64,000 nucleotides of DNA, from the NCBI GenBank assembly GCA_964429815.1, contig CAYSCM010000001.1, positions 32,001 to 96,000 of the forward strand, given 5' to 3'. A program made the translations under genes and the position numbers. Below the pieces are notes generated by a model. It had not been told where the DNA came from. It did not search any database and worked only from the letters and a program-made list of their open reading frames with translations. This stretch comes from an uncultured Candidatus Saccharibacteria bacterium (lineage in GTDB: Bacteria; Patescibacteriota; Minisyncoccia; Phycocordibacterales; CAYSCM01). Positions within the stretch are counted from its first letter, which is position 1. The number at the start of each line of letters is the position of its first letter. Positions 441-64,000 of this stretch are shown piece by piece.

Positions 441-1028
441 TTAGCCGTAGGGCAGCTCAAAGGGATCCTTCTTGTGGACGACTTCGACCAGGAAGTTCGC
501 GAGGTCGCGAATCGCACCCTCGCCGCCTGGCCGGATGCTCACGAAGTGGCAAATCCTCTTGATGGCCTCCTCGCCGGAGATCGGCGCTGCCGAAAAGTGC
601 ACGGCCTTGAGCATCGCGACATCGACAAGGTCGTCGCCCATGGCCCCGCATTGATTAAGTGTTCCCCCGTGTTTGGCGAGCCATTCCTTGAGCGTCTCGA
701 GCTTCTTGGGCCCGCCGCACCCTTCGAAAAGGTCGATGGGGGGCCAGGCACCGCTTTTGCAGGAAGGGAGATTGTTCAGCCGCTCTACGAGCGCGCGGAC
801 ACCGGCTGCGTTATCATCCTTCTCGTTGGTGATGACGCACAGGCGGATGCCGAGCGCCCGCATAAGAGAGAGCCCCTGGCCGTCGTAGTACGTGCGGATT
901 TTGGGTTTGAATTTCACGCCCCCGATCTCGACGCCTTCCCACACGGTGTTTGGAAAAAGGCATCCGTCGGAATCAAACGCGAAGAAAGAGACTTCGCGGG
1001 CACGTTCGAGTACTTCGGTGGACCACAT
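441..1028 (-). CDS. HAD-IIIA phosphatase, KdsC family (3-deoxy-ulosonate 8/9-phosphate phosphatase-like)
   Basis: FDSDGCL is a DxDG HAD motif I. The C-terminal GDDLVD...PGGEGAIRDL matches the KdsC/YrbI pattern. The likely start is the ATG at 1028, preceded by AGGAGGG; the ORF track extends to 1082. Confidence 0.75.
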   Translation of the reverse strand: MWSTEVLERAREVSFFAFDSDGCLFPNTVWEGVEIGGVKFKPKIRTYYDGQGLSLMRALGIRLCVITNEKDDNAAGVRALVERLNNLPSCKSGAWPPIDLFEGCGGPKKLETLKEWLAKHGGTLNQCGAMGDDLVDVAMLKAVHFSAAPISGEEAIKRICHFVSIRPGGEGAIRDLANFLVEVVHKKDPFELPYG

Positions 1029-1160
1029 GGTCCCTCCTGTTTGTTTGTTGGCTACTGTTTGGCCGGACGCATTCTGACACATCCATTTTATTTGTCAATA
1101 TTCTTCCAGGCTGTCTGGCAATAGAAACCCGTGCTAAGCTTCGCGAGTAACAAACGCGCT

Positions 1161-1697
1161 ATGGACCACCTTAGTCCAGAACTTAGGAAGAAATTCTCGC
1201 AGGTACAGTTTCTCGCGCTCGACTTCGACGGCATTTTCACCACGGGCCACGTGTACGTGCGCCAAGATGGAGAAGAAAGCGTTAAGTGCGACCGGCGCGA
1301 CGGCTTTGGGATTGAGCTTCTGCGCCGAGCCGGAGCCGTTAAAGCTTGCATCATCTCGCGAGAGCCAAACCCCGTCGTGACGGCGCGCGCAAAAAAGCTC
1401 CAACTCCCGGTGTGGCAAGGGATCGAGCGCGGAGGAGGAAAGCTCGAGGTACTCAAAGCTCACGTGGCCGAGCTCGGCATTGCGCTTGAGAACGTCGCAT
1501 ACATGGGGGATGACCTCATCGACATTGCGGTGCTACGAAGCGTCGGACTCCCTATCAGCGTCCCGAACGCCCATCCGAAAGCGCAGAGAGAGGCCCTCTA
1601 CGTCACCAGAGCAGGCGGCGGGGACGGAGCGATCCGTGAGGTCGCCGAGCTTCTCTTGCTAAGCAAAGGTTTCGACCTCGAGGAGCTCTCCCGTTAG
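1161..1697 (+). CDS. HAD-IIIA phosphatase, KdsC family (second, divergent paralog)
   Basis: LDFDGIFT is HAD motif I. ENVAYMGDDLIDIAVL...YVTRAGGGDGAIREVAELLLL closely follows E. coli KdsC (ENVAYVGDDLID...YVTRIAGGRGAVREVCDLLLL). An alternative GTG start lies at 1131. Confidence 0.75.
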   Translation: MDHLSPELRKKFSQVQFLALDFDGIFTTGHVYVRQDGEESVKCDRRDGFGIELLRRAGAVKACIISREPNPVVTARAKKLQLPVWQGIERGGGKLEVLKAHVAELGIALENVAYMGDDLIDIAVLRSVGLPISVPNAHPKAQREALYVTRAGGGDGAIREVAELLLLSKGFDLEELSR

Positions 1698-1737
1698 CCC
1701 AGTGACCCTTTATATGCGTGGTATGGTTATCTCACCT

Positions 1738-2454
1738 ATGAAAAACGATGTCGTGCTAGTGATCCCGGCTCGCGGTGGAAGCAAGGGAGTGCCGCGGAAA
1801 AATATCCGCCCGCTCTATGGAAAGCCCTTGGTTGCCTACACCATTGAAGCGGCGCTTTCCTCAGGAGCCATTAGCCGCGTTATTGTCTCGACCGATGATC
1901 AAGAGATTGGAGCAGTGGCAGAAAAATTTGGTGCGGAGTATCTTGACCGACCGAAAGAAATTTCCGGTGATAAGGTGACACTCGAGCCGGTGATTAAACA
2001 CGCTCTTGCGGCGCTAAAAGAAAAGGAAAACTACGTACCCACCTACATTGCCTGCATTCAGCCGACTTCCCCACTCCTTAGTGGAGATGTTATACGACGT
2101 TGTGTGGAAAAACTTACAAAAGAAAATTTTGATTCATGCATTACTGCGTTTTTGCCTGACACCTACGAATGGAAGTGGAGTCCAATCGTCAAAGACGGTA
2201 AAGAAGTCGGCTTCGAACCTGAACGACCTGTTATGAAGCGCGTGGTGCGGCAAGATTTGCCCAAGGTTTACCACGAGAACGGCGCCTTTTACGTCACCAA
2301 GACCTCACTTTTTAACGAAATCGGCCATCGCTGGGGAGGCAAGATGGCGATCGTTGAGATGACGCAGTTGAATTCTATACAAGTCGATAGCGAAGACCAA
2401 TTCTGGTTTATTGAACAGATCCTCCGCAAGCGCGAAAAAGACAACAAATCGTAG
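1738..2454 (+). CDS. CMP-sugar cytidylyltransferase (acylneuraminate cytidylyltransferase NeuA / CMP-Kdo synthetase family)
   Basis: VLVIPARGGSKGVPRKN is the signature N-terminal motif of NeuA/PseF/LegF-type cytidylyltransferases. The ORF track starts at a GTG at 1702; the ATG at 1738 (MKNDVVLVIPARGG) gives the canonical N-terminus. Confidence 0.8.
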   Translation: MKNDVVLVIPARGGSKGVPRKNIRPLYGKPLVAYTIEAALSSGAISRVIVSTDDQEIGAVAEKFGAEYLDRPKEISGDKVTLEPVIKHALAALKEKENYVPTYIACIQPTSPLLSGDVIRRCVEKLTKENFDSCITAFLPDTYEWKWSPIVKDGKEVGFEPERPVMKRVVRQDLPKVYHENGAFYVTKTSLFNEIGHRWGGKMAIVEMTQLNSIQVDSEDQFWFIEQILRKREKDNKS

Positions 2455-2534: not shown

Positions 2535-2564
2535 AGGCTCTTTTACAGTTTACAGGAGGAACCA

Positions 2565-4307
2565 ATGACTCTCGAGCTCAGGGACTTTGTCCCGAAGAAG
2601 GCCCTCGGGCTCCATCCCGCCGACGTTGTCGCTGGGATTCCCTGGGGAGGACTCTCCGGTATGCGGGTGTGTTTCATCAACATGCCACTGCGGGAGTCCG
2701 CGAAGCCAAATACCCCGCCGCAAGGTCCCGGCCTTATGGCGGCCCGTCTTATGCAGTATGGCGCTGACGTCTCGATTATCGACCTCAACGGCTACCGTAT
2801 CGATGACGAAGAAGCGCACAAGCGCGGACTCGTCAATGGCCGACACGTCTCCCACAATGAGGCGCGTCAGCTCATCGAGGCGACTTTCCACAAGTTCGGC
2901 GAACCGCACGTGATTGGCCTTTCGGGGAAAATCACGACGTTGCGCTGGCAGGAGTGGACCGCCAAGACGTGTCGTTCGCTCGCTCCAGAGGCGTTTCTCA
3001 TCTCCGGCGGTGGGCTCGCGACCGAGTTCAAAGAAGGACTCTTCAGCTGGGTGCCGCAGCTCGACGCGGTCGGCCACTCGGAAGGCGACGACATCATGGT
3101 CGCCTGCGTGAATGACGTTCGCAAGAGCGGAGGCAAGCGCGAGCGCATGACCGACTCGCCCTACTACGTGGGCGAAATCGGCGGACGCCACCGCTTCCTC
3201 TATGCGGGCGATCGACCAAGGGACCTCGATGCGCTACCGTTTGCTGCGCTCGAACTTCTCGAAGAAGACGTCTTTGGCAATCGCATACTCGACGAGTACA
3301 TCGCGACCCCCGTATGGGGACTCGCGGCGAACAACTCGTCGGCGGCACCTTTCGAGATGAGGAAGTCTCTCACGACCGTCTCCTCTCGCGGCTGTCCGTA
3401 TGCCTGCGCGTTCTGCTTCCGTGGAGCGCAAGGCGAGCAAAAGTGGGGGATCCGCTCCCCCGAGAACCTGCGAGCCGAAGCCGAGTGGATGATTCGGAAG
3501 TATGGCGTGGATTTCATCGGGTTTCCCGATGACAACTTTGCCGTAAGCGTCAAGCGCTGCCAATCGCTTCCGGAGGCCTTTGACGGGCTCTCGTTTCGTT
3601 GGGGCACGCATACGCGCCTTGACGAATGCACGCTCGATCGGATCGTGCCCATGGCGAAAGCTGGGTGCATCTATATCGGCGTCGGTGCCGAATCGGCCTC
3701 GAAACACACCCTCTACCGCATGAAAAAGGGCGGACACATCGTCCGCAAGGACGGCGTGGAGCGTCTCACGAAATGGAACGGGTTCGAATTTCCGACAACG
3801 ATGATCGAGGGGATTCGAAATTGCCGAGACGTGGGTATCCACGTGAACGCGACCTGGATCATGGGATACCCAGGGGAAACCTTGGAGGACCTCAAGACCT
3901 CGGTTGCTTTCATTTCCTGGCAACAGGAGCACTACACCAAGGGATTGGTGCCCGGCACGCCGGAGTATCAAAATGCCTCGGCGTCGGTGAATCGACGCAT
4001 GTTCACGGCGACGTGGTATCCGGGGACCACCATGGTGGAAGCCCCCGAAGCCACGAAACCGCGGGAGCTCCTCGGCGAGCACTTCGGGATTCGTTTCGTC
4101 GAGAAAGGAAGCGGGCATGCACACAAGTTCGTCCCCGTTCCCGACGACGCAATGAAAGCCTATGTGCTGGAACTCGATGACGCGACTAAGATCCTCCACG
4201 GATCCGACGGAGCGCCCATCAACTACTCGGACATGCCGGAGGAGGTCTTCCTCGAGGCCCGTAGTCACATCGATTCGGGTCAAACGGAAAAGATCCTGTC
4301 GATGTAA
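2565..4307 (+). CDS. Cobalamin (B12)-binding domain / radical SAM protein (class B radical SAM, probable methyltransferase or related)
   Basis: CPYACAFC is a CxxxCxxC radical SAM cluster motif at about residue 280. The N-terminal approximately 250 aa resemble a B12-binding Rossmann-like region. A strong SD (AGGAGGA) sits at 2554-2560. The protein is 580 aa. Confidence 0.8.
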   Translation: MTLELRDFVPKKALGLHPADVVAGIPWGGLSGMRVCFINMPLRESAKPNTPPQGPGLMAARLMQYGADVSIIDLNGYRIDDEEAHKRGLVNGRHVSHNEARQLIEATFHKFGEPHVIGLSGKITTLRWQEWTAKTCRSLAPEAFLISGGGLATEFKEGLFSWVPQLDAVGHSEGDDIMVACVNDVRKSGGKRERMTDSPYYVGEIGGRHRFLYAGDRPRDLDALPFAALELLEEDVFGNRILDEYIATPVWGLAANNSSAAPFEMRKSLTTVSSRGCPYACAFCFRGAQGEQKWGIRSPENLRAEAEWMIRKYGVDFIGFPDDNFAVSVKRCQSLPEAFDGLSFRWGTHTRLDECTLDRIVPMAKAGCIYIGVGAESASKHTLYRMKKGGHIVRKDGVERLTKWNGFEFPTTMIEGIRNCRDVGIHVNATWIMGYPGETLEDLKTSVAFISWQQEHYTKGLVPGTPEYQNASASVNRRMFTATWYPGTTMVEAPEATKPRELLGEHFGIRFVEKGSGHAHKFVPVPDDAMKAYVLELDDATKILHGSDGAPINYSDMPEEVFLEARSHIDSGQTEKILSM

Positions 4308-4324
4308 TCCAGTTCTCTCACTCA

Positions 4325-4358
4325 GGGACCGCAGCAATGCGGTCCTTTTTTATTTTTA
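4325..4358 (+). terminator. Rho-independent terminator after the radical SAM gene
   Basis: The stem gggaccgcagc/gcggtcc is followed by ttttttattttta. Confidence 0.7.
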
Positions 4359-4431: not shown

Positions 4432-5394
4432 ATGAAGATAGTACGGTGGTCCATACCCAAGCACCTCGATCTGTCGATTGAGATTTCCGGTAGAGAACAT
4501 ATGGCACAGGGAGAAAAGATGGGGTCTACGAAAGCCTTGGATGTCCTGCGCGGAATAACCTTCAGCGGCTCAGCGCCGGCGATACAGTTTGCCGATGTCG
4601 AGTCTTTATTTTCCTTTGTAGAAAAAAAATTTTTACATAAGACATTTGCGGGAGTCGGCATCGAAGTCGGCGCGGGGCCGATGATATTTAGCTCGCTCCT
4701 TACGCGCTCACGACCAAACATTCAACAGATGTATGGAATCGAACTAAGTGGCGGTATCGTAGAATTCATTGCCCCGGGAGTGGTTGATGAATTGCTGGGA
4801 CCCAAGAGTGAAAAGGTAGTCGGGGTCATCGGCAGTTTCGACGCGATGGAGCTTACAAGCGAGAGTGTCGATTTTGTTCTTGATTTTATGTCGCTTCACC
4901 ATGCGACCGACCTCGGAGAGGCGTTCGCCGAATGCTACCGGGTGCTAAAACCAGGCGGCTTCGTTGTTCTTTTTGACAAGGCTCGCCCCGATTCCTTCAC
5001 CTCTCAAGACCTGGAGGGATTGCTCAATACCGAGTACAGCGATGAAGAGAAAAAACGCTTTGGGGTGCCTTCCGGCGAACACTTTACACGCCGGATGAAC
5101 GGGGAAAAAGAATACCGGCTTAAAGATTGGTCGGCGGGGGCCTTAGAGGCCGGTTTCCCGACCCTTATGCATTGGCGACTCGCGCGCACCAACGTGCCGG
5201 GTATCTCAGGATTGTACCGACGTTTGCTTTCTCATGTGCCGCTACGCACCCAGATGGCTACTACCGCTATTGCACAAAGCGTACTGGGCAGCGGCTCAAG
5301 AGTGAAGTTTTCACAAAAAAATTTGGTGTACTCGCGGTACGTGAACCCCTTCCCCCGCGAGATCTCGCTCATGATCGCGCACAAGGCTTACTAA
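4432..5394 (+). CDS. Class I SAM-dependent methyltransferase (type 11-like)
   Basis: GVGIEVGAGPM is a glycine-rich motif I. VLKPGGFVVLFD is the post-II/III region typical of small-molecule methyltransferases. Confidence 0.7.
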   Translation: MKIVRWSIPKHLDLSIEISGREHMAQGEKMGSTKALDVLRGITFSGSAPAIQFADVESLFSFVEKKFLHKTFAGVGIEVGAGPMIFSSLLTRSRPNIQQMYGIELSGGIVEFIAPGVVDELLGPKSEKVVGVIGSFDAMELTSESVDFVLDFMSLHHATDLGEAFAECYRVLKPGGFVVLFDKARPDSFTSQDLEGLLNTEYSDEEKKRFGVPSGEHFTRRMNGEKEYRLKDWSAGALEAGFPTLMHWRLARTNVPGISGLYRRLLSHVPLRTQMATTAIAQSVLGSGSRVKFSQKNLVYSRYVNPFPREISLMIAHKAY

Positions 5395-6299
5395 CTTCTC
5401 CACGCGCTCAGGTCGCGCCCGGTAAATGCCTCGAGTTTTTGCAGTTCGGGTTCATAGCGAGCGCGGAGGGCTTCTTTGAGCTTCGGGTCGAGCGTCCCGT
5501 AGCTAGCTTCCCCGGTCCCCGCCCTCGTGTCGATGGAGCGCACTACTTTTTGGTGGAGCGGCGTTTTGCGGAAGAGGGAGAGGAGGGGCTCTCCGAATGG
5601 CAGGGCTTTGAGTAGCTTCCGCGCCCTGAGCGCGTGTCTGCGCAAGAGTGTCGCTCCGGCGGAATTTATGGTCGTGGCGAGCGAGGGCGGCACGAACGAG
5701 GCATCGACGCCGATGAAAGAAAAGATATCTCTCATATATTTTTTTGGGTCGGCACGCATATCGTCATAGAACGTAATGAGTATCTGGTCGCGGGAAAATA
5801 CCTTGAGATAATTTTCGAGGTGCTTCATATAGAAGCTCTCCTCGATAAACGACGGTTTAGTTTTAATAATTTCCTCAAGGGTTGGGAGCTCATGTGCGCC
5901 CTTTAGCTTCGTGTACATGTAGTGGGAAAAAAAGCGCTCCGTAGGGTTTCGCAATACCGCAATGATCTTCGCTTTAGGAAAATGTGTACGGAGGCGCTCC
6001 GGCACCTCGGGTGCGTGAATATAGATAGGAGTGACTTCTCCGTATACCCTCTTCCCTACACAGTGACCAAAATGTTCAAAATACCCTTCGAGAGCGCCGT
6101 TGTATTTTGTTTTCCCCACCAAATCAGTGCGCCAGAAACTTTGCGTCGTGTTAAAAAAGTTGAGCTCTTTGGGTTCGGAAACACAGACCTCGGGGTGCTC
6201 TTTGAGACATTGGTGGAGCCAGGTGGTGCCCGTCCGCTCCGGACCAATCACGAAGAAATCAATGGAAAAAGGCTTTGCTGTAGATGAAATGGTACTCAT
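5391..6299 (-). CDS. Sulfotransferase family protein (PAPS-dependent, carbohydrate sulfotransferase-like)
   Basis: FFVIGPERTGTTWL matches the 5'-PSB motif (PKSGTTW). IAVLRNPTERFFSHY matches the 3'-PB motif (RNPxD...S.Y). The start overlaps the upstream gene stop in an ATGA arrangement. Confidence 0.75.
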   Translation of the reverse strand: MSTISSTAKPFSIDFFVIGPERTGTTWLHQCLKEHPEVCVSEPKELNFFNTTQSFWRTDLVGKTKYNGALEGYFEHFGHCVGKRVYGEVTPIYIHAPEVPERLRTHFPKAKIIAVLRNPTERFFSHYMYTKLKGAHELPTLEEIIKTKPSFIEESFYMKHLENYLKVFSRDQILITFYDDMRADPKKYMRDIFSFIGVDASFVPPSLATTINSAGATLLRRHALRARKLLKALPFGEPLLSLFRKTPLHQKVVRSIDTRAGTGEASYGTLDPKLKEALRARYEPELQKLEAFTGRDLSAWRS

Positions 6300-6931
6300 G
6301 AGGCCGTCGGGATGGATTCCTTGTCGCGGTTTGAGAAAAACAGGTAGTCGACGATGGCGTGGAAGAAAACCGCGTGAAGCGCCTCAACGGGACCGTAGGC
6401 ACCTTTTCCTGTCTCAATGATTATCTTGTGGTGACAGAGGCTCTTCGCTTTGCCTCCGTCAAAACCAAGAACGCCTATCGCCGTGCCGCCCTTAGCGCAT
6501 ATGTACTCGATCGCGCGAAGCACATTGGGGGAATTGCCACTTGCGGAAATGACGATGAGCACATCGTCGGGACGAAAAATGTGCTTAAGCTGGTCCGCAA
6601 AAACGTTCTCGTAGCCGACATCGTTCCCGAGCGCCGTCACGGCGGCGATATTGTTGAGCGCGTGAATACGAAACGGCTTTTCTTCCGTACCACCCCCGTT
6701 CGTGGTGAGATCGGCCGCAAAGTGAGCCGCCATGGCAGCGCTCCCCCCGTTGCCGGCGATGTAGATCGTAGAGCCCCTCTCCCGGGCCTTTTGAAGCACG
6801 TCGATAATCTCCTCGACCGCTTTGGAATCTACGGCGGAAGCAAGCTCGAAGGCATGCGCAAGATACCCTTCCATAAATTCGGGTACCGATCCTTTTGTCT
6901 TTTGATAGATGGTATCGACGTGTCCTCTCAT
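6296..6931 (-). CDS. gmhA: Phosphoheptose isomerase (sedoheptulose-7-phosphate isomerase, SIS domain)
   Basis: It is a single SIS-domain protein of about 211 aa. STIYIAGNGGSAAMAAHFAADL is the GmhA signature. It is translationally coupled on both sides. Confidence 0.8.
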   Translation of the reverse strand: MRGHVDTIYQKTKGSVPEFMEGYLAHAFELASAVDSKAVEEIIDVLQKARERGSTIYIAGNGGSAAMAAHFAADLTTNGGGTEEKPFRIHALNNIAAVTALGNDVGYENVFADQLKHIFRPDDVLIVISASGNSPNVLRAIEYICAKGGTAIGVLGFDGGKAKSLCHHKIIIETGKGAYGPVEALHAVFFHAIVDYLFFSNRDKESIPTAS

Positions 6932-8596: not shown

Positions 8597-10366
8597 TTAT
8601 TTTTTTTCGGGAAGAAGCTTAACCATCATGTTGTCATTGAACTCTTTTCTTGCAAGTAGCGGCTCGGGATCCTCGAGCGGCCGACCGAACTTTACCTGCG
8701 GGATTACGCGGTGCTTCGGGTTAATCTCGATGTTACAAAACACAGGCCCCCTCATCGCGAGCACCTTCTTAACTCCCCCGCTCAACTCGCGGTTCTTCTT
8801 GATCGTAATGGTTTTGAAGCCAAAGGAGGAAGCAATTTTGGCAAAGTCTGGGAACGCAAGTCCTCCCCCTTCCGAAGACGCAAGATACGCCGAATTAAAC
8901 CACTGATCTTGAGTCTGCTGTATCATACTGTAGCCGTGGTTATTCAATACAAAAATCTTGATCGGAAGTTTGTGCTTGAGAAGGGTACTTAACTCTTGCA
9001 AATTCATTTGGAGTGAACCATCTCCGGTTACACAAATAATTGATTTCTTGTTAAGCGCCAGGCTTACCCCAATGCTCGCCGGCAAAGCCCACCCCATCGC
9101 GGTGTTGTTCCAATCGTGGTAAAGACGCTGACCTTTCTTGAAGGAAAATCCCTGCATCATCCATGCGACCGTGCAGCCGGTATCAATGACCATTACTTCG
9201 TTCTGACGCGTGTAGCGAGAGAGCTCCTCAACAAATACATACGGATTGACCCCTTTCTCTTTGTAGTACGCGGGTGGGCACATGGGATATTTTTTCTTCC
9301 ATGCGGCAATACGTCTAAGCCAGGGTGAGATGTCGTTTTTTGGCAAACGTGCGGCGTGCTTTTGAAATGCCTTCAGCAGCTCTTTTGCGTCACCGGAGAT
9401 ACGCACATCGACTTTCAGGCCAAATTTTTTAAACTTCTTAAGTTCGTAGGGGTCAATATCGATGACTATCTTTTTTGCCTCTCGCGCAAACGTGTTGGGA
9501 GGACTACCCGTCGATTTGGTATCAAGACGGCTTCCGATTGAGAGGATCATGTCAGCGTTCTGGACGGCAAAATTGGCAAACCGCGTGCCGTGAGTGCCAA
9601 AGGTGCCGATGCGAAGTGGATGACTCTCTGGCAGGAGATCCCCTGCCCCCCATGTGAGTGCCGCAGGAAAGCCGAGTGTTTCCAAAAGTGAGATGGCCTC
9701 TTTTTCGGCCCCCGCGAGGTGGATTCCCCACCCAAACACAACGACGGGGCGCTTCGCCTGCCGTAGATAGTTTATGCTTCGAGCTACATCAACCGGCGCT
9801 TTCTTCTTCTCGACGGAGGGTGTAAACGAGGGAAGCTCTCCTGGATTAATTTCTCTGCGCTGAATGTCGTCGGGAATATCGAGCACTACGGGTCCTGGCC
9901 TACCACTTCGCGCCAGAAAGATCGCTTTCTCAAGCTCGTAGCGTATGCGCCTCTCATCGGTGATGAGTATCGCGTACTTAGTGATAGGACGATACATTTC
10001 GACCGTTGCCGTTTCTTGAAAACCCACTTGCCGCACGTTGGTATGACCTTTCATCCTAAAGGTGGCTACTTGGCCGGTAATAAATATGACGGGTACCGAA
10101 TCGTAGTAGGCGGAGCACACTCCCGTGATCATGTTCGTAGCACCTGGCCCTGAGGTGGACATCGCTACACCGAGGCCACCCGTGGCCCTCGCGTACCCGT
10201 CGGCAGCCATTGCCCCCGCTTGCTCGTGTCCTGGACAGATGACCTCCATTCCCCCCGTGCGCGCCACCGAATGAATAAGGTGAAGGGATGCTCCGCCGGA
10301 GATGGCAAAGACATGCTTCACCCCTTCTTTGCGGAGAACCTGTGCTACGTAGTCGGTGAGCTTCAT
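8597..10366 (-). CDS. Thiamine-pyrophosphate-dependent enzyme, acetolactate synthase large-subunit-like (YerE-like candidate for sugar C2-branch attachment)
   Basis: The N-terminal MKLTDYVAQVLRKEGVKHVFAISGGASL...GPGATNMITG has the TPP PYR domain. The central domain and C-terminal VTGDGSLQMNLQEL...N TPP-binding GDG motif are also present. It is 589 aa. Confidence 0.85.
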   Translation of the reverse strand: MKLTDYVAQVLRKEGVKHVFAISGGASLHLIHSVARTGGMEVICPGHEQAGAMAADGYARATGGLGVAMSTSGPGATNMITGVCSAYYDSVPVIFITGQVATFRMKGHTNVRQVGFQETATVEMYRPITKYAILITDERRIRYELEKAIFLARSGRPGPVVLDIPDDIQRREINPGELPSFTPSVEKKKAPVDVARSINYLRQAKRPVVVFGWGIHLAGAEKEAISLLETLGFPAALTWGAGDLLPESHPLRIGTFGTHGTRFANFAVQNADMILSIGSRLDTKSTGSPPNTFAREAKKIVIDIDPYELKKFKKFGLKVDVRISGDAKELLKAFQKHAARLPKNDISPWLRRIAAWKKKYPMCPPAYYKEKGVNPYVFVEELSRYTRQNEVMVIDTGCTVAWMMQGFSFKKGQRLYHDWNNTAMGWALPASIGVSLALNKKSIICVTGDGSLQMNLQELSTLLKHKLPIKIFVLNNHGYSMIQQTQDQWFNSAYLASSEGGGLAFPDFAKIASSFGFKTITIKKNRELSGGVKKVLAMRGPVFCNIEINPKHRVIPQVKFGRPLEDPEPLLARKEFNDNMMVKLLPEKK

Positions 10367-10370
10367 GGCG

Positions 10371-11228
10371 CTACCAGGGCATCTGCTCCTTAACGCTTAT
10401 AAAGAGTGTCCCGTCACGGTAGCTCTCGGGCATATCGCCGGCTTTTGTGACAAGTCCCCACCCTATCTTCTGCGAGAACAAATTGACGCCGGAGCCTGTA
10501 AAGTGCTTGAAAATGTGCTTGGCATTCTCCGCGGTCCCAACCTCGACCAGGCCGTCACAGCTCTCCCAATCGGAAGCTTCGGTCGAGAGGAGTACTTCCT
10601 TCTCGTGCCCTTCGACGTCCATTTTGATGAGATCAGCGCCGGCGAGAATCGGCCCGAACGCTTCGAGCTCCACGGAGAACATTTCCCGATCCCCGTAGAC
10701 GTCGTGCTTTGCTCCCGAGAGGTGACTCCCCGTAGTGTTGCCGAGCACTCGGGTAAAATCTGCTGAACCCGAGCGACTTGAGACGGCGCTGTTGTGAAGG
10801 CTGGCAGAATTACATCCGTTACGCGCAAGATTTTTTTTGAGGATATCGAAATGAACCGGATCGGGCTCGTAGGAGGAAACCTTAAAACCACAACGACAAA
10901 GGATAATCGAGTGAAGTCCAATATTTGCTCCGAGGTCTACAACGCTCGTATAGCGATTGCGATTGCGCCAGTAAAAACTGAAAATAACGAGTTCATTGAG
11001 GTCAAAGAGATTCCGCGAATCGACATTACCCATGTTGTGGTATGGAAACGAGATATCTCCAAATGGCGGAAAGTGGACCGACTCTTTTGAATCAACGGGA
11101 AAGAGCCTCTCCACTTCCTTCCGAGCTTTGGCGGCACGTTCTTTGAATGGCGCGCTTGTCGGAGTATGAGAGGGTAATTCCTGCGGGAGCGTGGCAAAGA
11201 TATTCTCCAAAAAAGCCGAGGATTCCAT
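10371..11228 (-). CDS. FkbM-family SAM-dependent methyltransferase
   Basis: VVDLGANIG and KMDVEGHE are FkbM-domain hallmarks. Confidence 0.7.
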   Translation of the reverse strand: MESSAFLENIFATLPQELPSHTPTSAPFKERAAKARKEVERLFPVDSKESVHFPPFGDISFPYHNMGNVDSRNLFDLNELVIFSFYWRNRNRYTSVVDLGANIGLHSIILCRCGFKVSSYEPDPVHFDILKKNLARNGCNSASLHNSAVSSRSGSADFTRVLGNTTGSHLSGAKHDVYGDREMFSVELEAFGPILAGADLIKMDVEGHEKEVLLSTEASDWESCDGLVEVGTAENAKHIFKHFTGSGVNLFSQKIGWGLVTKAGDMPESYRDGTLFISVKEQMPW

Positions 11229-11244
11229 GACGGGAGATACCCTA

Positions 11245-12042
11245 TCAGATTTTTCGTAATTTTAATAGCTCGGGGTCACGCGCGAGCGTTTTTGAAAAGC
11301 GCGCGCTCCCCCACGCGTCATAGACAACGTGTACATCTCTTCCCCCGACTACCTTTTTTGCTGACCCAATGACCCAGTCGAGACAGTCGAGAACTCGCTC
11401 CATGGGTATAAAGTCCCCGCGCGCTAGCTTTTTCCTTGTTCGAGCATACGTATCGCCCGCGCGCCTGCCGGCGGTGATAGTCTCCTGATGGATTTTGCTG
11501 CGCACCCAACCGGGGCCTATGGTGACGAAGCGAGCATCGTTCAGCTCCGCGTCGAGGATTTCAAACATTTTTATGGTCGCTATCTTTGAAACGGTATACG
11601 CCGAGAAATTGCGTGGTGCGTTGTTCGTCCCCCCACCAGAAAATGAAATTATGCAGGGTTTTTTGGATTTCGAACGTCTGGGCAGAAGTCCGTGGATGAT
11701 GCCCATGTGAGAAAGAAAATTGAGGCGAATTGATTTTTCCCAGTCTCCGAAAGAAACGCGTTGAAAAGCTCCTATGGGCGTAAGGGTCGCCGGAGCCAGT
11801 ACAAGAACGTCCCAGGCCACCGCGAGGCTCCGCAACGTACGTAGCGCCCTATGTACAGAGGCAGGTCGAGCGACGTCACAGTGTATAAGGTGTGCGCCAA
11901 GTTTTTGCAATCCTTCTGTGGTGTGGCTGCCGGTTCTATACGTGCCGAAAACCGCCCAGCCGCGGTTTAAGTATCTTCGAGCTATGGCGGTGCCGATATC
12001 GCTTGAAATGCCGACGATGATTATTGAGCCAGTTTTTTTCAT
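11245..12042 (-). CDS. Short-chain dehydrogenase/reductase (SDR)
   Basis: GISSDIGTAIA is the TGxxxGIG cofactor motif. It is about 265 aa. Confidence 0.7.
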   Translation of the reverse strand: MKKTGSIIIVGISSDIGTAIARRYLNRGWAVFGTYRTGSHTTEGLQKLGAHLIHCDVARPASVHRALRTLRSLAVAWDVLVLAPATLTPIGAFQRVSFGDWEKSIRLNFLSHMGIIHGLLPRRSKSKKPCIISFSGGGTNNAPRNFSAYTVSKIATIKMFEILDAELNDARFVTIGPGWVRSKIHQETITAGRRAGDTYARTRKKLARGDFIPMERVLDCLDWVIGSAKKVVGGRDVHVVYDAWGSARFSKTLARDPELLKLRKI

Positions 12043-12215: not shown

Positions 12216-13496
12216 ATGCGCCAAAAATTGAGCACCCTTGTCGAAAAACTGACGGTCGCGACCGGCATAAACTTTTCCTACCTCCTGCGCGGAGGGTCCT
12301 GGGCGTTTTCCGAGCAGGTGGTTACCAACGCCATCTCCCTCCTCCAGGCCATCGCGTTTGCCAACCTTATCTCTCCGCAGACGTATGGAGTGTTTAGTGT
12401 CGTGCAATCGTGGATAGGCATTCTCGTTACGTTCGCGCTCGGGAGCCTTCCAAACGCGCTTATAAAAAGCGTTGCGGAAGGCAACGACGGGGAGCTCAAA
12501 CGCGGATTTCTCCTCAAGCTTAAGTATGCTCCCCTTGCCTCTCTGCTCGGGCTCGGATTCTCCTTCTACTATCTATTTATAGGGAACAATACGACCCTCG
12601 CTTACTCGTTTCTCATTGCTTCGTTTTGCATGCCGCTTTACGTAGCGCTTCCGCAGGTCACGTTCTTCCTGTTCGCCAAGGGAGCATTTCTCGATAAGTT
12701 CATCGTGCAAGTGAGCGTTAGTCTTGCTTCGCTGGCAGGAATGACTATTTCAATGCTCTATTTCGGTTCTGTTCCATACCTGATGCTCGCCTACTTCATT
12801 CCACCGATCATCGTGAACGGCATCTTTTTTTGGCGCACGCTGCGCACCAAGGTTCATAATGCCAAGACCGGCGCGAACACGGAGCGGTTTGCGCTCCACC
12901 TTACGGGCATGAGTCTTCTTGGTTCGATAACCAAAAACATCGACCAACTCCTCATGTTCCACTTCAGCGGCGCAGTTCAGCTCGCGGTATATAAATTTGC
13001 CTTGATTCCCATACGAAAGCTGGAGACCTTTTTCCAGATCATCCTCGATCTGCTCCTCCCGCGATTTGCCAAGAGAGAGTACCGCGAGATTTACCAGGGG
13101 TTCGACAGAAAGCTCCTCCTTTCAGGCGCTTTTTCGTTGACGGTCGTGGCTGTTTATTTTTTCAGCATCCCCTACCTCTACAAGCTCTTTTTCCCGAAAT
13201 ACACCGACGCGGTGATATACTCGCGACTCCTTTCCCTGCTGTTTTTGTTTGGCCCTCTCTCATACGTTCAGCAGCTTTGGCTTGCGAAGGCGGAAACTAA
13301 ACGTCTCTATTTTTTAAAAATTCTCGGTGATTCCACCCGGATCTCACTTCATGTCGCGCTTATTCCCGTATTTGGGATCGCCGGTGCAGTGGGAAGCCGG
13401 ATGGTCGCATCCTCCTTTGTCAGCACCGCGGCATTCATTTTATTTTTGAAGGATAGGAGACGGTACGGTAAAGGCTCGAAGCGCCAATCGCAGTAA
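12216..13496 (+). CDS. Polysaccharide/O-antigen flippase, Wzx-like (MOP/PST family), polytopic membrane protein
   Basis: It is 426 aa with about 12 hydrophobic segments. The N-terminal region NAISLLQAIAFANLISPQTYG is typical of PST-family flippases. Confidence 0.65.
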   Translation: MRQKLSTLVEKLTVATGINFSYLLRGGSWAFSEQVVTNAISLLQAIAFANLISPQTYGVFSVVQSWIGILVTFALGSLPNALIKSVAEGNDGELKRGFLLKLKYAPLASLLGLGFSFYYLFIGNNTTLAYSFLIASFCMPLYVALPQVTFFLFAKGAFLDKFIVQVSVSLASLAGMTISMLYFGSVPYLMLAYFIPPIIVNGIFFWRTLRTKVHNAKTGANTERFALHLTGMSLLGSITKNIDQLLMFHFSGAVQLAVYKFALIPIRKLETFFQIILDLLLPRFAKREYREIYQGFDRKLLLSGAFSLTVVAVYFFSIPYLYKLFFPKYTDAVIYSRLLSLLFLFGPLSYVQQLWLAKAETKRLYFLKILGDSTRISLHVALIPVFGIAGAVGSRMVASSFVSTAAFILFLKDRRRYGKGSKRQSQ

Positions 13497-16249: not shown

Positions 16250-17317
16250 TTAAAACGGACCGGTAAAACGCTTATCGGGCACATCGAGCGGCGTCGTGCG
16301 TTTCTTCTCTTCCGCTGCGACGAGCGACTCTAATTTTTTTGTATCCCCCTCAACCATAGAGACCACCATTCTGGCCATATCGATATAGCGCGGGTAGTAC
16401 TCATTGGCAAGCGCAGGCGTTGATGGGCTTGGCAGATCCGGCGCGGTAAGCCGGCGAGGGTTGGTCCGTAGACTGATTGTCGAATCCTCCGCGACTTGTG
16501 TGATTATCTCTCCCGCGACCCCGAAGCTGCGATGCCCGAGATCGGCCACAAGCAGCCGTCCTGTTTTTTTGACTGAGCGTGCTATTGTCTCGGTATCAAG
16601 AGGTTTAAGACTTCGCACATCGACGACCTCGGCGCTCACGCCAACCTTTTGGAGTAACTCCTGCGCACGCAGAGCCTCGTAGGTGAAGTAGGACGTTGTT
16701 ACAAGGGAAACATCGCTTCCCCGGCGCATTATACGAGCCTTGCCGATGGGCACCCTATAGTGACCCTCGGGAACATCTTCAGCAAGATCATGGAGCCATC
16801 GATGATCGATATATATGACCGGATTATCGTCCTCAATCGCGGCGAGCATCAGTCCCTTGGCATCGGAGGGGGTCGCGGGCATCACTACCTTGAGCCCGGG
16901 GATGTGCGCATAGAGGGCTTGGAGATTTTGTGAATGCTGCGGGCCCTGCCCCCATCCCATGCCGATGGTCATTTTCACCGTAAGGGGTACCGATTGCGCT
17001 CCGTTGTACATGTACGACCATTTCGCCGCATTGTTGATCACCTGCTCGATCGCAAGAAGGCTGAAGTCAACTCTCTGGTGCGTTAGGACTGGGCGCATCC
17101 CATTTACCGCCGCACCGATGCAGATCCCGGTTACCGCGAGCTCAGAAGTTGGCATATCAAGTACTCGTTTTGCGCCATGTTTTTTCTGAAGTCCCGTCGT
17201 CGTGCCAAAAATTCCCTTTGGATCAGGGACACCCAATCCTATAAGGAACACCGACTTGTCTTTAGCCAGAGCAAGATCAAATGCTTCTCGTATTGCTTGC
17301 GAATATGTTTTACGCAT
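16250..17317 (-). CDS. TPP-dependent 2-oxoacid dehydrogenase E1 component, beta subunit-like (transketolase-like pyrimidine-binding and C-terminal domains)
   Basis: MRKTYSQAIREAF...SVFLIGLGV...MPTSELAVTGICIGAAVNGMRPV is a canonical E1-beta N-terminus. The start is probably the ATG at 17317; the ORF track extends to 17401. It is coupled to the E1-alpha gene. Confidence 0.8.
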   Translation of the reverse strand: MRKTYSQAIREAFDLALAKDKSVFLIGLGVPDPKGIFGTTTGLQKKHGAKRVLDMPTSELAVTGICIGAAVNGMRPVLTHQRVDFSLLAIEQVINNAAKWSYMYNGAQSVPLTVKMTIGMGWGQGPQHSQNLQALYAHIPGLKVVMPATPSDAKGLMLAAIEDDNPVIYIDHRWLHDLAEDVPEGHYRVPIGKARIMRRGSDVSLVTTSYFTYEALRAQELLQKVGVSAEVVDVRSLKPLDTETIARSVKKTGRLLVADLGHRSFGVAGEIITQVAEDSTISLRTNPRRLTAPDLPSPSTPALANEYYPRYIDMARMVVSMVEGDTKKLESLVAAEEKKRTTPLDVPDKRFTGPF

Positions 17318-18269
17318 AGAGGTGTTCGGCAAGAGCTTCCCTCTTTGGAAACGGGCTCTTTTCGGCAAAACGGAATGCTCCATCAACCTGTCGAATCGCA
17401 TCGTTTCGGATTTTTTCGATGAGGTCGCTAGAAAGCACCTCTTTCTTCAGGAGCTCACGCTCGAACATCGCGACAGGATCCTTCTTCTTCCACACGGCAA
17501 CCTCCTTCGGATCACGGTACCCAAGCTCGTCATCAAAATTTGGGCCGCAGTGCTCACGGTAGCGGTAGGTCGAAAATTCCAAAAAAACTGGACCCGAACG
17601 GACGGCTTTTCTGGCTTTTGTTGCGGCAGCGAGAACGGTCGAAACATCGTTACCATCGTGGCGCGACGCAGGAATGCCGTGCCCTTTGGCAAGCGCGTAG
17701 ATGGGGCGTTTAGGTTGGCGCTCAGAGAGATGTGTGTACACCGAGAAGCGGTTATCTTCGCACACAAATACAATGGGTAGTTTGTGGAGCGCCGCAAAAT
17801 TGAGACTTTCATGGAAAGCCCCCTCCTCGACGGTACCATCCCCAAAAAACGAAACGATGACGCGGTTTTCCTTCCGGAGCTTCGCTGCAAACGCCGCTCC
17901 CGTTGCAATCGGAATGCTGTTGCCGACGATGGGTGTGGCCCCGCCAAAACCGGCCTTGAGATCAATGAGGTGCATGGAGCCGCCCTTGCCACCGCAGCAG
18001 CCCGTAGCTTTGCCATAGAGCTCAGCCATCATCGCATTGAGGTTGCCGCCTTTAGCGAGGTAATGAGCGTGACAGCGATGGGTACTATACACGAGATCCT
18101 CTGCCGTGAGCGCCGCGCACACCCCAACCGCAACGGCCTCTTGGCCGATCGAGAGGTGGACGGGACAGCGCATCTTTCCTTCGCTATAGCGACGAGCTAT
18201 CGTCTCTTCCGTCGTGCGTATGAGAATGAGCTTGCGGTAGAGCGATAGGAGTGCTTCATTTTTCTTCAT
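17310..18269 (-). CDS. TPP-dependent 2-oxoacid dehydrogenase E1 component, alpha subunit-like (pyruvate/acetoin dehydrogenase E1-alpha family)
   Basis: GDGTVEEGAFHESLNFAAL and MRCPVHLSIGQEA are the E1-alpha TPP-binding motifs. No E2 or E3 genes are nearby. Confidence 0.85.
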   Translation of the reverse strand: MKKNEALLSLYRKLILIRTTEETIARRYSEGKMRCPVHLSIGQEAVAVGVCAALTAEDLVYSTHRCHAHYLAKGGNLNAMMAELYGKATGCCGGKGGSMHLIDLKAGFGGATPIVGNSIPIATGAAFAAKLRKENRVIVSFFGDGTVEEGAFHESLNFAALHKLPIVFVCEDNRFSVYTHLSERQPKRPIYALAKGHGIPASRHDGNDVSTVLAAATKARKAVRSGPVFLEFSTYRYREHCGPNFDDELGYRDPKEVAVWKKKDPVAMFERELLKKEVLSSDLIEKIRNDAIRQVDGAFRFAEKSPFPKREALAEHLYA

Positions 18270-20353: not shown

Positions 20354-21724
20354 CTAGGAAATAAAACTGAGCACAGCGGAAGCGATGTGAGAGGCCGACA
20401 TTCCGTCGAATTTCCAGCAGTAGCGATCTTTGAAAACTTTGCGCCGGTCGCTGTGAATCTCGGGGTGCGCAAGGTAGATGTTGATCCATTTCGCAAGTTC
20501 TCCCTTGGAGCCCACGAGAGCGGTCGAGCCGATGGAGAGCCAGGAAACTTGATTTTCCTCCAATCTCCAGCGCCTCACGAGGCTGCGCAGGAACGGTACC
20601 TTTGTTTCCCACCCGTCGAAATTGATGGTGATGAGCGGTTTATCGAAAATAGAAGAATCGATGATGATGGAAGAGATGGTATTGATGACCAGCGAGCTCC
20701 AGTAGAGTGAATCGTAAATGTGTTGAAAGAAGCTCATGTCGAGTTCCCCCTCTCGCTTGTCACGCTCAAGGTCATTGAGCTTGGCGGGGCCTGGAATATC
20801 AATAATAAAGTGCTCGTCTGGTGTGAATTTGGAGAGGTCGACGGGGAGGAACGGGTGGAGCCGAACCAAAATTTGCAAATCGTCGGGGATTTTCTTCTCC
20901 GCAAAGAGGTCTTTGAGGATCTGGCAGGTCTGCCAGTCGGTGTCGATGAAAAAATGTCCGGCGGGCGCGAAGAGGACGAGGCGTTTCTTCGGGTCAGCGC
21001 CGATTTTCTTAAAAAATTCTTCACGCGGGGTCGGCTGCATGGTGAGGTACTTTTCAAACTGCGGGACACCTGATAGCACGATCGTGGTCTCTTTGATGTG
21101 GTGGTAGCGCACCATATCCTCTTTCATGACCTCGTTATGGACGATGAGCCGATCCGGCACGAAGCGAGCATAGCTACGGGACGTCGTATTGTCCCACGAA
21201 CGCACCATCGCGACCGTTCTCACCCCGCGTGCTTTGGCATTTTTGAGAAGGAAGAGGTCCGAGTGATTAAAAAGGTCGGTCGCGAACACGACGCTGGGCC
21301 GATATGTCTCAACATATCGATTGAACGTGTCCTGATTATTGAGCCTATAGTCGAGAAAACGCAGGAATTTCTTGACTGGCGTGATCGGAGCGAACAGGGC
21401 CGTGAAGAGAAGCGACGTATAGTACTTCGGCCAGTTACCCGTCTTCGTCCGCGCCTCGAGTTTATGGATCCACATGACGTTCGTGTCGAGGAGCCACTCG
21501 GCCAGTCTTTGGAACAGCCGGTTGCGGAAACTGGTTACGTTCTTTCCAAGTTCCACCCCCTCGACAATGACGCCCGGGTAGCGTATTTTAAAATATTCCT
21601 CCTGGGGTTTTGCAACAAAAAGGACGACCCGCGCCTCCTTGGTGAGAAGATCGAGCACTCCCGTGTTGAGGATATTTTTTGTTATAAACGGATGAAAATC
21701 CGTAATGAAAACCGTCGGCTTCAT
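20354..21724 (-). CDS. Putative CDP-glycerol/ribitol glycerophosphotransferase-family (TagB/TagF-like) GT-B enzyme
   Basis: RLVLFAPAGHF resembles the TagF (I/V)LYAPTWR catalytic region. It is 456 aa with no transmembrane segments. The assignment is tentative. Confidence 0.4.
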   Translation of the reverse strand: MKPTVFITDFHPFITKNILNTGVLDLLTKEARVVLFVAKPQEEYFKIRYPGVIVEGVELGKNVTSFRNRLFQRLAEWLLDTNVMWIHKLEARTKTGNWPKYYTSLLFTALFAPITPVKKFLRFLDYRLNNQDTFNRYVETYRPSVVFATDLFNHSDLFLLKNAKARGVRTVAMVRSWDNTTSRSYARFVPDRLIVHNEVMKEDMVRYHHIKETTIVLSGVPQFEKYLTMQPTPREEFFKKIGADPKKRLVLFAPAGHFFIDTDWQTCQILKDLFAEKKIPDDLQILVRLHPFLPVDLSKFTPDEHFIIDIPGPAKLNDLERDKREGELDMSFFQHIYDSLYWSSLVINTISSIIIDSSIFDKPLITINFDGWETKVPFLRSLVRRWRLEENQVSWLSIGSTALVGSKGELAKWINIYLAHPEIHSDRRKVFKDRYCWKFDGMSASHIASAVLSFIS

Positions 21725-27936: not shown

Positions 27937-29073
27937 TTAGGTAACGGCCCGAAGGGACTCGAGAATGAGGCGCGCCCGCGCTTCCCAGCTGTAGCGTTTC
28001 GCGAGTTCGCGAGCGACCCGACCTCGATCCACAAATTTGCCCCGAAGTCCTTCGAGCACCGTTTTCAAAAGAATTTCCCCATCGCCAGCGGGAACGAATG
28101 CCGCCTCCCGGTCGGAGAGAATTTCCCGCACCGAGGGAAGATCCGTCGTGACAATAGGAATTCCGCTCGCCATGTAGCTGAACATTTTAAGCGGTGACAT
28201 AAACTTGGCGTAGTGTTCCGTGTTTGGATAGTTCATGACGTGCACGTTGGCGGCTCGGAAATAACCGACCATGTCCTTTTGTGATGGAGTAGCATTAATA
28301 TGAAATTGACTATCTCGAAGACCGGCAGAGTGTGCCATATCGATCGCACGAGCCCTATCGACCTGCGACATACCAGCAAGAAGTAAATACGCGTTTGGTT
28401 CCTCATGGAGTAGTTTCGGAAACAGACGTATAAGCTCCTCGACGCCCTTGCCCCTTCCCATGGTGTGGAGTGCCCCTACATACCCGACCACCTTCGCTTC
28501 GGAGGGGATGCCGTTGCCCCGACGCCACACTCCTACATCAAACGGCTCACGGTAGGGTCGCACATCGACTCCATCGTGAGCTACCACGATCTTCCCAGGA
28601 TCCACCCCTTCGCTCTTCAGAAGCTCTGCGTGTGCTCCCGTGATGGCAACAATGAGCCGAGCACGTTGAAATAGAATTCGAGCGAATCGATTCAGTTTTT
28701 TGGTGTGAACTTCCCACACTACCCTCCCCGTTTTTGCGACAAGAGAAAGCGCCACCTCATCACGACCGTAGATGATATCCGCTCTCGAACTGCGAGCGTA
28801 GAGGTACGAAGCGAAAGCAAACGTTACCACCTGTACGAAAAAGCCAGCGCTCCCGAATCGCACGAGGTCGAGCGAGAAAAGCCTTACGATGCGAAACTGC
28901 GTGCGCACATCATAAAACTCAAACGGATCGACAGCAAGCCGACCGAAGCGCCACGGTACTGCGAGAATCACCTCATGGCCTTCACGGGCAAAGGCCTCGC
29001 ACATCTTCACGACCTGGAGGCCATGCGCCTTCTCGGTCGGCAGTCGGATGTTGGCGACGTAGAGGATTTTCAT
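27937..29073 (-). CDS. Glycosyltransferase family 4 (GT-B)
   Basis: The GT4 C-terminal domain pattern is present (YPNTEHYAKFMSPLKMFSYMASGIPIVTTDLPSVREIL). Confidence 0.75.
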   Translation of the reverse strand: MKILYVANIRLPTEKAHGLQVVKMCEAFAREGHEVILAVPWRFGRLAVDPFEFYDVRTQFRIVRLFSLDLVRFGSAGFFVQVVTFAFASYLYARSSRADIIYGRDEVALSLVAKTGRVVWEVHTKKLNRFARILFQRARLIVAITGAHAELLKSEGVDPGKIVVAHDGVDVRPYREPFDVGVWRRGNGIPSEAKVVGYVGALHTMGRGKGVEELIRLFPKLLHEEPNAYLLLAGMSQVDRARAIDMAHSAGLRDSQFHINATPSQKDMVGYFRAANVHVMNYPNTEHYAKFMSPLKMFSYMASGIPIVTTDLPSVREILSDREAAFVPAGDGEILLKTVLEGLRGKFVDRGRVARELAKRYSWEARARLILESLRAVT

Positions 29074-29876: not shown

Positions 29877-29938
29877 GAGAGTGAGTGTTACACGTAAACT
29901 AAATCGACATCGGGAAAGTTGCAATGAGGAGCCTGCGT

Positions 29939-44260: not shown

Positions 44261-44261
44261 G

Positions 44262-44267
44262 AGTATA
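44262..44267 (-). promoter_or_regulatory. Candidate -10 box (TATACT) abutting the ATG of the VirD4-like gene (possible leaderless mRNA)
   Basis: The minus-strand sequence reads TTGCAT-20nt-TATACT-C-ATG. The spacer is long for a sigma70 promoter, so only the -10 element is called. Confidence 0.25.
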
Positions 44268-44288
44268 GCAATTTTGCCGCCATCGCGA

Positions 44289-44318
44289 TGCAAAAAGCCC
44301 CGCACTCTTTTGCGGGGC
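44289..44318 (-). terminator. Rho-independent terminator after the small gene at 44339-44554
   Basis: The minus-strand hairpin gccccgcaaaagagtgcggggc is followed by tttttg. Confidence 0.5.
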
Positions 44319-50504: not shown

Positions 50505-51980
<1,476 letters not shown>

Positions 51981-61020: not shown

Positions 61021-61075
61021 ATTATAAATTCCAACTATTTTCGATCTCTAAGTGTGACATTTTGGACGGATTCTC

Positions 61076-61464: not shown

Positions 61465-64000
<2,536 letters not shown>

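Follow-up and report, generated by a model that had tools for sequence, protein, structure and literature searches.

The window analyzed here (64,000 nt; positions 32,001 to 96,000 of contig CAYSCM010000001.1, from an uncultured Candidatus Saccharibacteria bacterium) carries a gene for a radical S-adenosylmethionine (SAM) enzyme with class B architecture, set among genes related to ulosonic acid synthesis and surface glycans (Table 1). The gene is an intact open reading frame that spans exactly positions 2565 to 4307 of the forward strand and encodes a protein of 580 amino acids (aa). A Shine-Dalgarno sequence lies ahead of its start codon, and an intrinsic terminator follows its stop codon. 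Five assembled contigs, the longest of 501,704 bp, carry an identical protein, and more than 835 homologs were found, the best 120 of which share 54 to 74% identity with it; the gene is therefore far beyond chance. An earlier note on this sequence had placed a radical SAM enzyme dependent on cobalamin here, in what it took to be a reduced genome. The gene is real, as its exact reading frame, Shine-Dalgarno sequence, terminator, radical SAM domain, and CxxxCxxC motif show. The premise of a reduced genome also holds, since the host belongs to the Patescibacteria, or Candidate Phyla Radiation (CPR), and the named homologs of its SecD protein are nearly all from Paceibacterota/Parcubacteria.

Table 1. 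Coordinates of the radical SAM gene, its parts and signals, and neighboring genes in the window
Feature	Position (nt)	Strand	Details
Radical SAM enzyme, class B architecture	2565..4307	+	580 aa
Rossmann-like, B12-binding-type N-terminal domain	2661..3164	+	residues 33-200
Radical SAM core	3360..3929	+	residues 266-455
CxxxCxxC motif (C277, C281, C284)	3393-3416	+	within radical SAM core
Family-specific C-terminal domain	3930..4304	+	residues 456-580
Shine-Dalgarno sequence AGGAGG	2554-2559	+	5 nt between its end and the ATG; direct sequence reading
Intrinsic terminator	4324-4347 (also annotated as 4324..4357)	+	10-bp stem, 6 GC pairs, T-run; immediately 3' of the radical SAM stop codon
Candidate cytidine monophosphate (CMP)-ulosonate cytidylyltransferase (CTP_transf_3, NeuA/PseF/KdsB-like)	1702..2454	+	Pfam, 103.3 bits; called 1738-2454 on source contig
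KdsC/YrbI-type ulosonate-phosphate phosphatase	1131..1697	+	TIGR01670, 114.3 bits vs cutoff of 106.95 (passes)
Second, divergent haloacid dehalogenase (HAD)/KdsC-like phosphatase	441..1082	-	Pfam/NCBIfam; called 441-1028
Class I SAM methyltransferase (Methyltransf_11, 320 aa)	4432..5394	+	Pfam; downstream of radical SAM gene
SIS-domain sugar-phosphate isomerase (GmhA-like)	6296..6931	-	Pfam/NCBIfam
Wzx-type flippase (Polysacc_synt)	12216..13496	+	surrounding glycan locus
TagB-like Glyphos_transf protein	20354..21724	-	Pfam, 50.4 bits; candidate CMP-ulosonate transferase

The Pfam radical SAM model (PF04055) matched residues 273 to 449 with 58.9 bits, against a gathering cutoff of 29.5. The three cysteines (C277-x3-C281-x2-C284) were invariant in all 75 sequences of a family alignment that includes CPR and extends to the most divergent members, from Roseibium, Planctomycetota, Polyangiaceae, Nitrospirota, Acidobacteriota, and a Nanoarchaeota genome. 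The radical SAM assignment and the CxxxCxxC motif are thereby confirmed. The cobalamin part of the assignment rests on the family level, because the single sequence matched the B12-binding model PF02310 (residues 102 to 181) below threshold, with 16.7 bits against a cutoff of 32.1. Of the 50 sequences in a family alignment, 38 matched this model at E ≤ 0.01 (best, 8e−9), and the family profile matched TokK with an E value of 1.8e−10, residues 108 to 172 aligning to residues 63 to 127 of TokK, which lie in its cobalamin domain. Searched alone against the sequences of the PDB, the N-terminal domain gave only spurious matches of designed ankyrin repeat proteins to the string LMQYGADV and a weak match to TokK (E = 0.71), the single sequence being uninformative in this search. 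NCBIfam returned 17 matches, all of them to B12-binding radical SAM families except for weak ones to RimO and ArsL (E of about 0.01). None was near its cutoff: BchE (TIGR02026), HpnJ (TIGR03471), PhpK (TIGR04479), Sden_1168 (NF038361), and ApyD (NF050148) scored 65 to 72 bits against cutoffs of 481 to 750, and KedN5 was also among the families matched. The model of the P-methyltransferase Sden_1168 covered both domains of the protein (residues 47 to 450).

The AlphaFold2 model of the protein was confident (predicted local distance difference test, 88; predicted template modeling score, 0.89). Its best 17 Foldseek matches among solved structures were all of class B architecture, namely TokK, TsrM, CysS, OxsB, AprD4, and MgmA (E from 8e−15 to 1e−10), and the next match was lipoyl synthase (E = 5e−5). 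The predicted domain order and overall fold agree with those of TokK, TsrM, and OxsB. As in these enzymes and in ThnK and CysS, a Rossmann cobalamin domain leads into a radical SAM partial barrel and then a C-terminal domain, although identity to this group is just 14 to 19%; the cobalamin domain of TokK is the best sequence match of the N-terminal domain. The C-terminal domain, of about 125 aa, is confidently modeled, shows no significant match among PDB sequences, and, unlike the rest of the layout, is unrelated by sequence to its counterparts in TokK, TsrM, and OxsB. It is also the least conserved part of the protein, with 11% of columns occupied by one residue in at least 95% of the sequences, against 21% in the Rossmann domain, which comes close to the 25% of the catalytic core. 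We propose that it binds the substrate.

Residues contacting the cobalamin tail have been defined from the structures of OxsB, TsrM, and TokK: a downstream motif of the G-x-S-x-L type on the β3-α3 loop (A70-x-S72-x-Y74-x-W76 in TokK), a GG pair on β4, a GE pair at α5, and a long loop after β1 that lacks histidine (PMC9204698). With the register taken from the HMMER alignment to TokK rather than from superposition, all of these features were found in the protein, as G118-L-S120-G121-K122-I-T124, G148-G149-G150, S172-E173-G174-D175, and a long β1-α1 loop (residues 40 to 56) without histidine. Across the 75-sequence alignment, in which conservation was scored, the downstream motif reads [A/G]118-x-S120-G121-[M/K/L]122-I-T124. 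Residues G121, G148, and E173 were kept in all 75 sequences, G150, G174, and D175 in 74, and S120 in 72; G149 was more variable (G in 58, N in 15). The family differs from the known enzymes in the details: Trp76 of TokK, beneath the cobalt, corresponds to Thr124 (74 of 75 sequences), and the position of Arg69 in TsrM and Asn186 in OxsB is taken by Met, Lys, or Leu. If the domain were vestigial, one would not expect exactly these motif residues to be retained, and for this reason we think it likely that the protein binds cobalamin. The earlier note had named the lack of a B12-binding profile match as the result that should overturn its class B label. This is literally what the single sequence gives, and the family-level evidence reverses it: the label stands on the B12 domain of the family, the fold, and the cobalamin-tail motifs, while the PF02310 score of the protein itself does not carry it.

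Searched exhaustively with phmmer, 1.84 billion representative sequences gave 17,987 matches at E ≤ 0.001. Full-length relatives scored above approximately 240 bits with at least 40% identity, and below them the scores stepped down to at most 137 bits (about 28 to 38% identity), mostly in proteins of 430 to 500 aa. These nearest outgroup proteins, unassigned themselves, scored best against the HpnJ, BchE, and PhpK models, far under the cutoffs. This score step and the low outgroup scores place the protein, by sequence, in a discrete and uncharacterized orphan family without a close characterized relative. The family is common in Patescibacteria and was also found in Roseibium, Planctomycetota, Polyangiaceae, and one Nanoarchaeota genome. 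Since Roseibium carries it, it is not peculiar to CPR.

The gene neighborhood was compared over 80 further loci taken from species-representative genomes. Neighbors were counted by tblastn within 5 kb of the radical SAM gene in 55 well-flanked loci (at least 6 kb on both sides) and by an unbiased all-against-all census within 6 kb in 84 loci, where the radical SAM family itself was recovered in 81. CTP_transf_3 cytidylyltransferases were present in 42 of the 55 loci and in 51 of the 84, NeuB synthases in 39 and 45, and HAD/KdsC-like phosphatases in 30 and 39, respectively, the two counts agreeing in rank. The census further contained short-chain dehydrogenases/reductases (SDRs; 36 loci), Wzx flippases (29, and 18 of the 55), Glyphos_transf proteins (28), TIM barrels resembling L-ribulose-5-phosphate 3-epimerase (25), two families of class I methyltransferases (20 and 18, the latter being the 320-aa type, found in 13 of the 55), and SIS isomerases (12, and 5 of the 55). 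In 25 of 77 loci, the next gene downstream of the radical SAM gene, on the same strand, is that of the cytidylyltransferase, and in 11 further loci a single convergent methyltransferase gene separates the two. Four other CPR lineages, with homologs of 56 to 64% identity, showed the same setting, comprising NeuB, an HAD/KdsC phosphatase, SDRs, CTP_transf_3, a class I methyltransferase, Wzx, Wzy_C, and a TagB-like Glyphos_transf protein. In Roseibium litorale, a one-strand module encodes a ferredoxin-NADP reductase-like protein, NeuB, a phosphatase resembling KdsC and the phosphatase of 2-keto-3-deoxy-D-glycero-D-galacto-nononic acid (Kdn) 9-phosphate, the radical SAM enzyme, and a CTP_transf_3 enzyme; the last two genes overlap by 4 bp. 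NeuB, a KdsC-type phosphatase, and CTP_transf_3, whose linkage marks a CMP-ulosonic-acid cassette, thus accompany the family in several phyla, and the sugar-acid context suggested by the earlier note is tied to an ulosonic-acid pathway far more strongly than that note had claimed.

Some individual loci show further features of the cassette. In the Nanoarchaeota metagenome-assembled genome (JAHJSH010000029.1), the family member (positions 10001 to 11707 of the extracted locus; 49% identity) is accompanied within 3 kb by genes for NeuB, a KdsC-like protein, and a cytidylyltransferase, all on the same strand. This suggests that the cassette has been transferred as a unit between ultra-small bacteria and archaea. 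In Candidatus Sungiibacteriota (CP066690.1), a diversity-generating retroelement with reverse transcriptase and bAvd (positions 10152 to 11555 of the extracted locus) lies inside the cassette and separates the radical SAM gene from the NeuB, cytidylyltransferase, and methyltransferase genes. Two Parcubacteria GW2011 loci (L007, 6986-7789; L008, 2074-2877) carry a gene for a 267-aa radical SAM/SPASM protein immediately upstream of the class B gene. In the Roseibium litorale locus (L042, 7020-15181), the ferredoxin-NADP reductase-like gene that precedes the module is a possible source of electrons; the module is followed by a gene for a 626-aa protein with an N-terminal tetratricopeptide repeat domain, which we take to have the layout of the flagellin glycosyltransferase FlmG, and then by one for a TylF-like O-methyltransferase. 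A single-cell genome of one alphaproteobacterium has a flagellin gene (L089, 2978-3379) about 2 kb from the radical SAM gene. The sugar of this pathway may decorate flagellin in Roseibium.

The linkage to ulosonic acids could be incidental, in which case the enzyme would act on something else that the locus makes, for example a hexose, a heptose, a lipid carrier, or a protein. The glycan locus of the window is indeed huge and diverse, with GDP-mannose dehydratases, a DegT aminotransferase, three thiamine diphosphate (ThDP) enzymes, two sulfotransferases, and a nucleoside diphosphate (NDP)-hexose C-methyltransferase, and about a quarter of the well-flanked loci have no detectable NeuB or cytidylyltransferase within 5 kb. 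However, NeuB, KdsC, and CTP_transf_3 are the only partners that travel with the family across phyla, the remaining genes of the window locus being present in at most 2 of the 55 loci, and the minimal Roseibium operon encodes no other sugar pathway. We therefore regard an incidental linkage as very unlikely.

The genes flanking the radical SAM gene in the window are those described in the earlier note, with the CTP_transf_3 gene upstream on the same strand and the Methyltransf_11 gene downstream. The best NCBIfam model for the cytidylyltransferase was PseF, at 150.9 bits against a cutoff of 205.7, and the product of the phosphatase gene at 1131 to 1697 scored 90 bits against the Kdn-9-phosphate phosphatase model. 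A NeuB-family synthase is encoded on the same source contig 3.4 to 4.4 kb before the window start, and a second cytidylyltransferase, two 2-hydroxyacid dehydrogenases, and two kinases are also encoded upstream of the window. The SIS isomerase may supply the aldose phosphate for NeuB. The partner genes fell below the equivalog cutoffs (NeuB, 250 against 400 bits; PseI, 207 against 340; PseF, 151 against 206), and the conserved cassette contained no NeuC or PseB/PseC-type genes. For these reasons, the sugar made by the cassette is probably not classical sialic, pseudaminic, or legionaminic acid. The product of a phosphorylated route like those to Kdn or 3-deoxy-D-manno-octulosonic acid (Kdo) would fit better. 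The product of the gene at 20354 to 21724 matched the BFO_1060 family of nonulosonic acid transferases weakly (43.5 bits against a cutoff of 200). Since the pseudaminic and legionaminic acid transferases of Tannerella are TagB-like (PMC5420450), the recurrent Glyphos_transf genes, this one included, plausibly encode CMP-ulosonate transferases.

Taken as a pathway, a sugar phosphate, possibly shaped by the SIS isomerase, an SDR, or the TIM-barrel epimerase, would be condensed with phosphoenolpyruvate (PEP) by the divergent NeuB, after which the KdsC-type phosphatase would remove the phosphate and the CTP_transf_3 enzyme would form the CMP-sugar. The synthase, phosphatase, and CMP-transferase encoded by the neighbors follow the order of steps of the NeuB-NeuA, PseI-PseF, KdsA-KdsC-KdsB, and Kdn-9-phosphate synthase routes; unlike the family's cassette, none of these canonical pathways includes a radical SAM enzyme in the literature searched. 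The radical SAM enzyme would modify the ulosonic acid either free or linked to CMP, and the TagB-like transferase with the Wzx/Wzy machinery would place the sugar on a surface glycan. We propose that the enzymes of this family are dedicated to tailoring in an ulosonic-acid (Kdn/Kdo/nonulosonic acid-like) pathway and most likely act by methylcobalamin-dependent C-methylation, a proposal that we hold to be about equally likely to be right or wrong. The intact gene, its domain layout, the conservation of the motifs, and the gene linkage are observed, whereas cobalamin binding, the substrate, and methylation in place of another radical reaction are inferences. In this reaction, a [4Fe-4S] cluster on C277, C281, and C284 would split SAM to give the 5'-deoxyadenosyl radical, which would abstract a hydrogen from an unactivated carbon of the sugar. 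The substrate radical would then take a methyl group from methylcobalamin, held base-off/His-off in the N-terminal domain, and a second SAM would remethylate the cob(I)alamin.

C-methylation is favored here because it is the dominant chemistry of class B enzymes, methylation being by far the commonest activity among those characterized (PMC12931638). Fom3, also of class B, offers a precedent: a cytidylyltransferase makes its CMP-linked substrate, which it then C-methylates (PMC8158854). The tight coupling of the radical SAM and cytidylyltransferase genes, which abut in the 25 loci mentioned above, fits this precedent.

Besides the subthreshold PF02310 score, several results weigh against this proposal. 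Structure cannot separate nonmethylating B12-dependent radical SAM enzymes from methylases (PMC12931638). The window contains no gene for cobalamin transport or salvage (btu, cob, or cbi) and, at Rfam gathering thresholds, no cobalamin riboswitch. We know of no C-methylated ulosonic acid, and the literature searched contained no radical SAM enzyme linked to nonulosonic or ulosonic acids. Finally, SDR genes recur near the radical SAM gene in the census, and AprD3, the reductase partner of AprD4, is an SDR.

This last point bears on a different chemistry. AprD4, which acts as a 1,2-diol dehydratase in apramycin biosynthesis, binds no cobalamin (PMC12931638). A similar enzyme, with a Rossmann domain of purely structural role, could act as a radical diol dehydratase and, with a neighboring SDR reductase, deoxygenate the ulosonic acid, for example at a terminal diol that the KdsC-type phosphatase has exposed and that would become a deoxy position. 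We consider this unlikely. The family retains cobalamin-tail motifs that are nearly invariant across phyla, which would be unexpected for a vestigial pocket. The AprD4 model (NF033070) aligned to core residues 267 to 381 alone and reached 31.6 bits against a cutoff of 500, whereas the B12 methylase models and TokK extend into the N-terminal domain. Moreover, no SDR gene lies beside the radical SAM gene in the window or in the Roseibium operon.

OxsB, BchE, and probably HpnJ perform nonmethylating reactions on their own substrates, and the family could likewise be cobalamin dependent and catalyze epimerization, carbon-skeleton rearrangement or ring contraction, oxidation, or C-C bond formation on the ulosonic acid. 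The architecture and motif evidence would support such an enzyme equally well. BchE gave the top NCBIfam score (71.6 bits) and HpnJ (65 bits) was among the top five, neither being a methylase; the nearest outgroup proteins also scored best with these two models, and the cassette already holds separate class I methyltransferases. In addition, nonmethylating members occur in the largest group of class B enzymes and are structurally indistinguishable (PMC12931638). Nevertheless, the BchE and HpnJ scores were about 7-fold under the cutoffs and no better than those of the P-methyltransferases PhpK and Sden_1168, and methylation so dominates the characterized enzymes that we give nonmethylating chemistry only a small chance of being correct. 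A phosphonate pathway was considered and rejected, since PhpK and Sden_1168 scored no better than BchE and no PEP mutase was found in the Pfam scans of the window or among the annotated census representatives.

The earlier note took the enzyme to imply cobalamin uptake or salvage, for which, as stated above, the 64-kb window contains no gene. A gene at positions 46244 to 46927 of the reverse strand matched the Pfam TP_methylase family (tetrapyrrole/corrin methylases) and was rejected as a cobalamin gene because it encodes the 16S rRNA methyltransferase RsmI (TIGR00096, 240.9 bits against a cutoff of 167.9). Nothing useful on cobalamin use by CPR bacteria was found in the literature searched. 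If the family is cobalamin dependent, it would give episymbionts with reduced genomes a concrete reason to scavenge B12 and would add one more orphan family to the class B enzymes awaiting a function.

Compared with known systems, BchE, HpnJ, PhpK, and Sden_1168 are the highest-scoring curated models, and the nearest outgroup falls in the same broad group; the family nevertheless scores 7- to 9-fold under their cutoffs and sits in an entirely different pathway context. The substrates of the group of TokK, TsrM, and OxsB are carbapenams, tryptophan, and nucleotides rather than ulosonic acids. GenK and GenD1 act on aminoglycoside sugars, and GenK reportedly methylates a terminal CH2OH carbon. 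The class B network lists both GenK and GenD1 among its Csp3 methylases (PMC12931638). These two and Fom3 are functional analogies: no specific sequence relationship to Fom3 or GenK was detected, neither model being among the NCBIfam matches, and the substrate class differs. By this analogy, one possibility is terminal C-methylation of the CH2OH carbon of the ulosonic acid, as Fom3 does with its own substrate (PMC8158854). In that case, the chain would be lengthened or a deoxy-type terminus created after the synthase step.

The superfamily is well known. This family has not been described, nor have its C-terminal domain and pathway context. Ulosonic acids (sialic, legionaminic, and pseudaminic acids, Kdo, and Kdn) are key sugars of cell surfaces and host interaction. 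To our knowledge, their known tailoring acts on oxygen or nitrogen substituents, and a radical SAM step would bring carbon-level chemistry to them. The linkage suggests an undescribed, modified acidic sugar on the surface of many microbes. In a more specific and tentative form, which we think possible although rather doubtful, the family would make an undescribed ulosonic acid, C-methylated or otherwise radically rearranged, which many CPR bacteria and some DPANN archaea would carry on their surfaces and marine Roseibium possibly on its flagellins. Were this true, ultra-small symbionts of minimal metabolism would have to scavenge B12 only for a surface glycan. The family occurs widely among Patescibacteria. 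Almost nothing is known of the chemistry of their cell surfaces, by which these organisms probably attach to their hosts. Roseibium is culturable, and the prediction is thus directly testable.

Two sulfotransferase genes of the glycan locus (5391-6299 and 29070-29924, reverse strand) hint at a sulfated CPR surface glycan. The three ThDP enzymes (8597-10366 and 16250-18269, reverse strand), one acetolactate synthase-like and the others a pair resembling the alpha and beta subunits of pyruvate dehydrogenase E1, may point to two-carbon branch chemistry of the acyloin type on a keto-sugar. The gene of the NDP-hexose C-methyltransferase type (29975-31243, forward strand; Methyltransf_14 with a zinc-binding domain) would give the locus, as predicted from its domains, a second route to a C-methyl sugar, one that needs no cobalamin. 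A gene for a VirD4/TraG-like coupling ATPase adjoins one for a lamin-tail-domain protein where the glycan locus borders on other genes (41719-44305, reverse strand). The rRNA genes of the window are unlinked (50519-51980, 60916-61021, and 61464-64000, all on the reverse strand), with the 23S and 5S genes about 9 kb upstream of the 16S gene. Genes for SecD/SecF, an epimerase, a priming sugar transferase, a GT4 glycosyltransferase, and FtsW lie between them. The 23S match covers 2,537 nt for 2,374 model positions, and an insertion of about 160 nt may be present.

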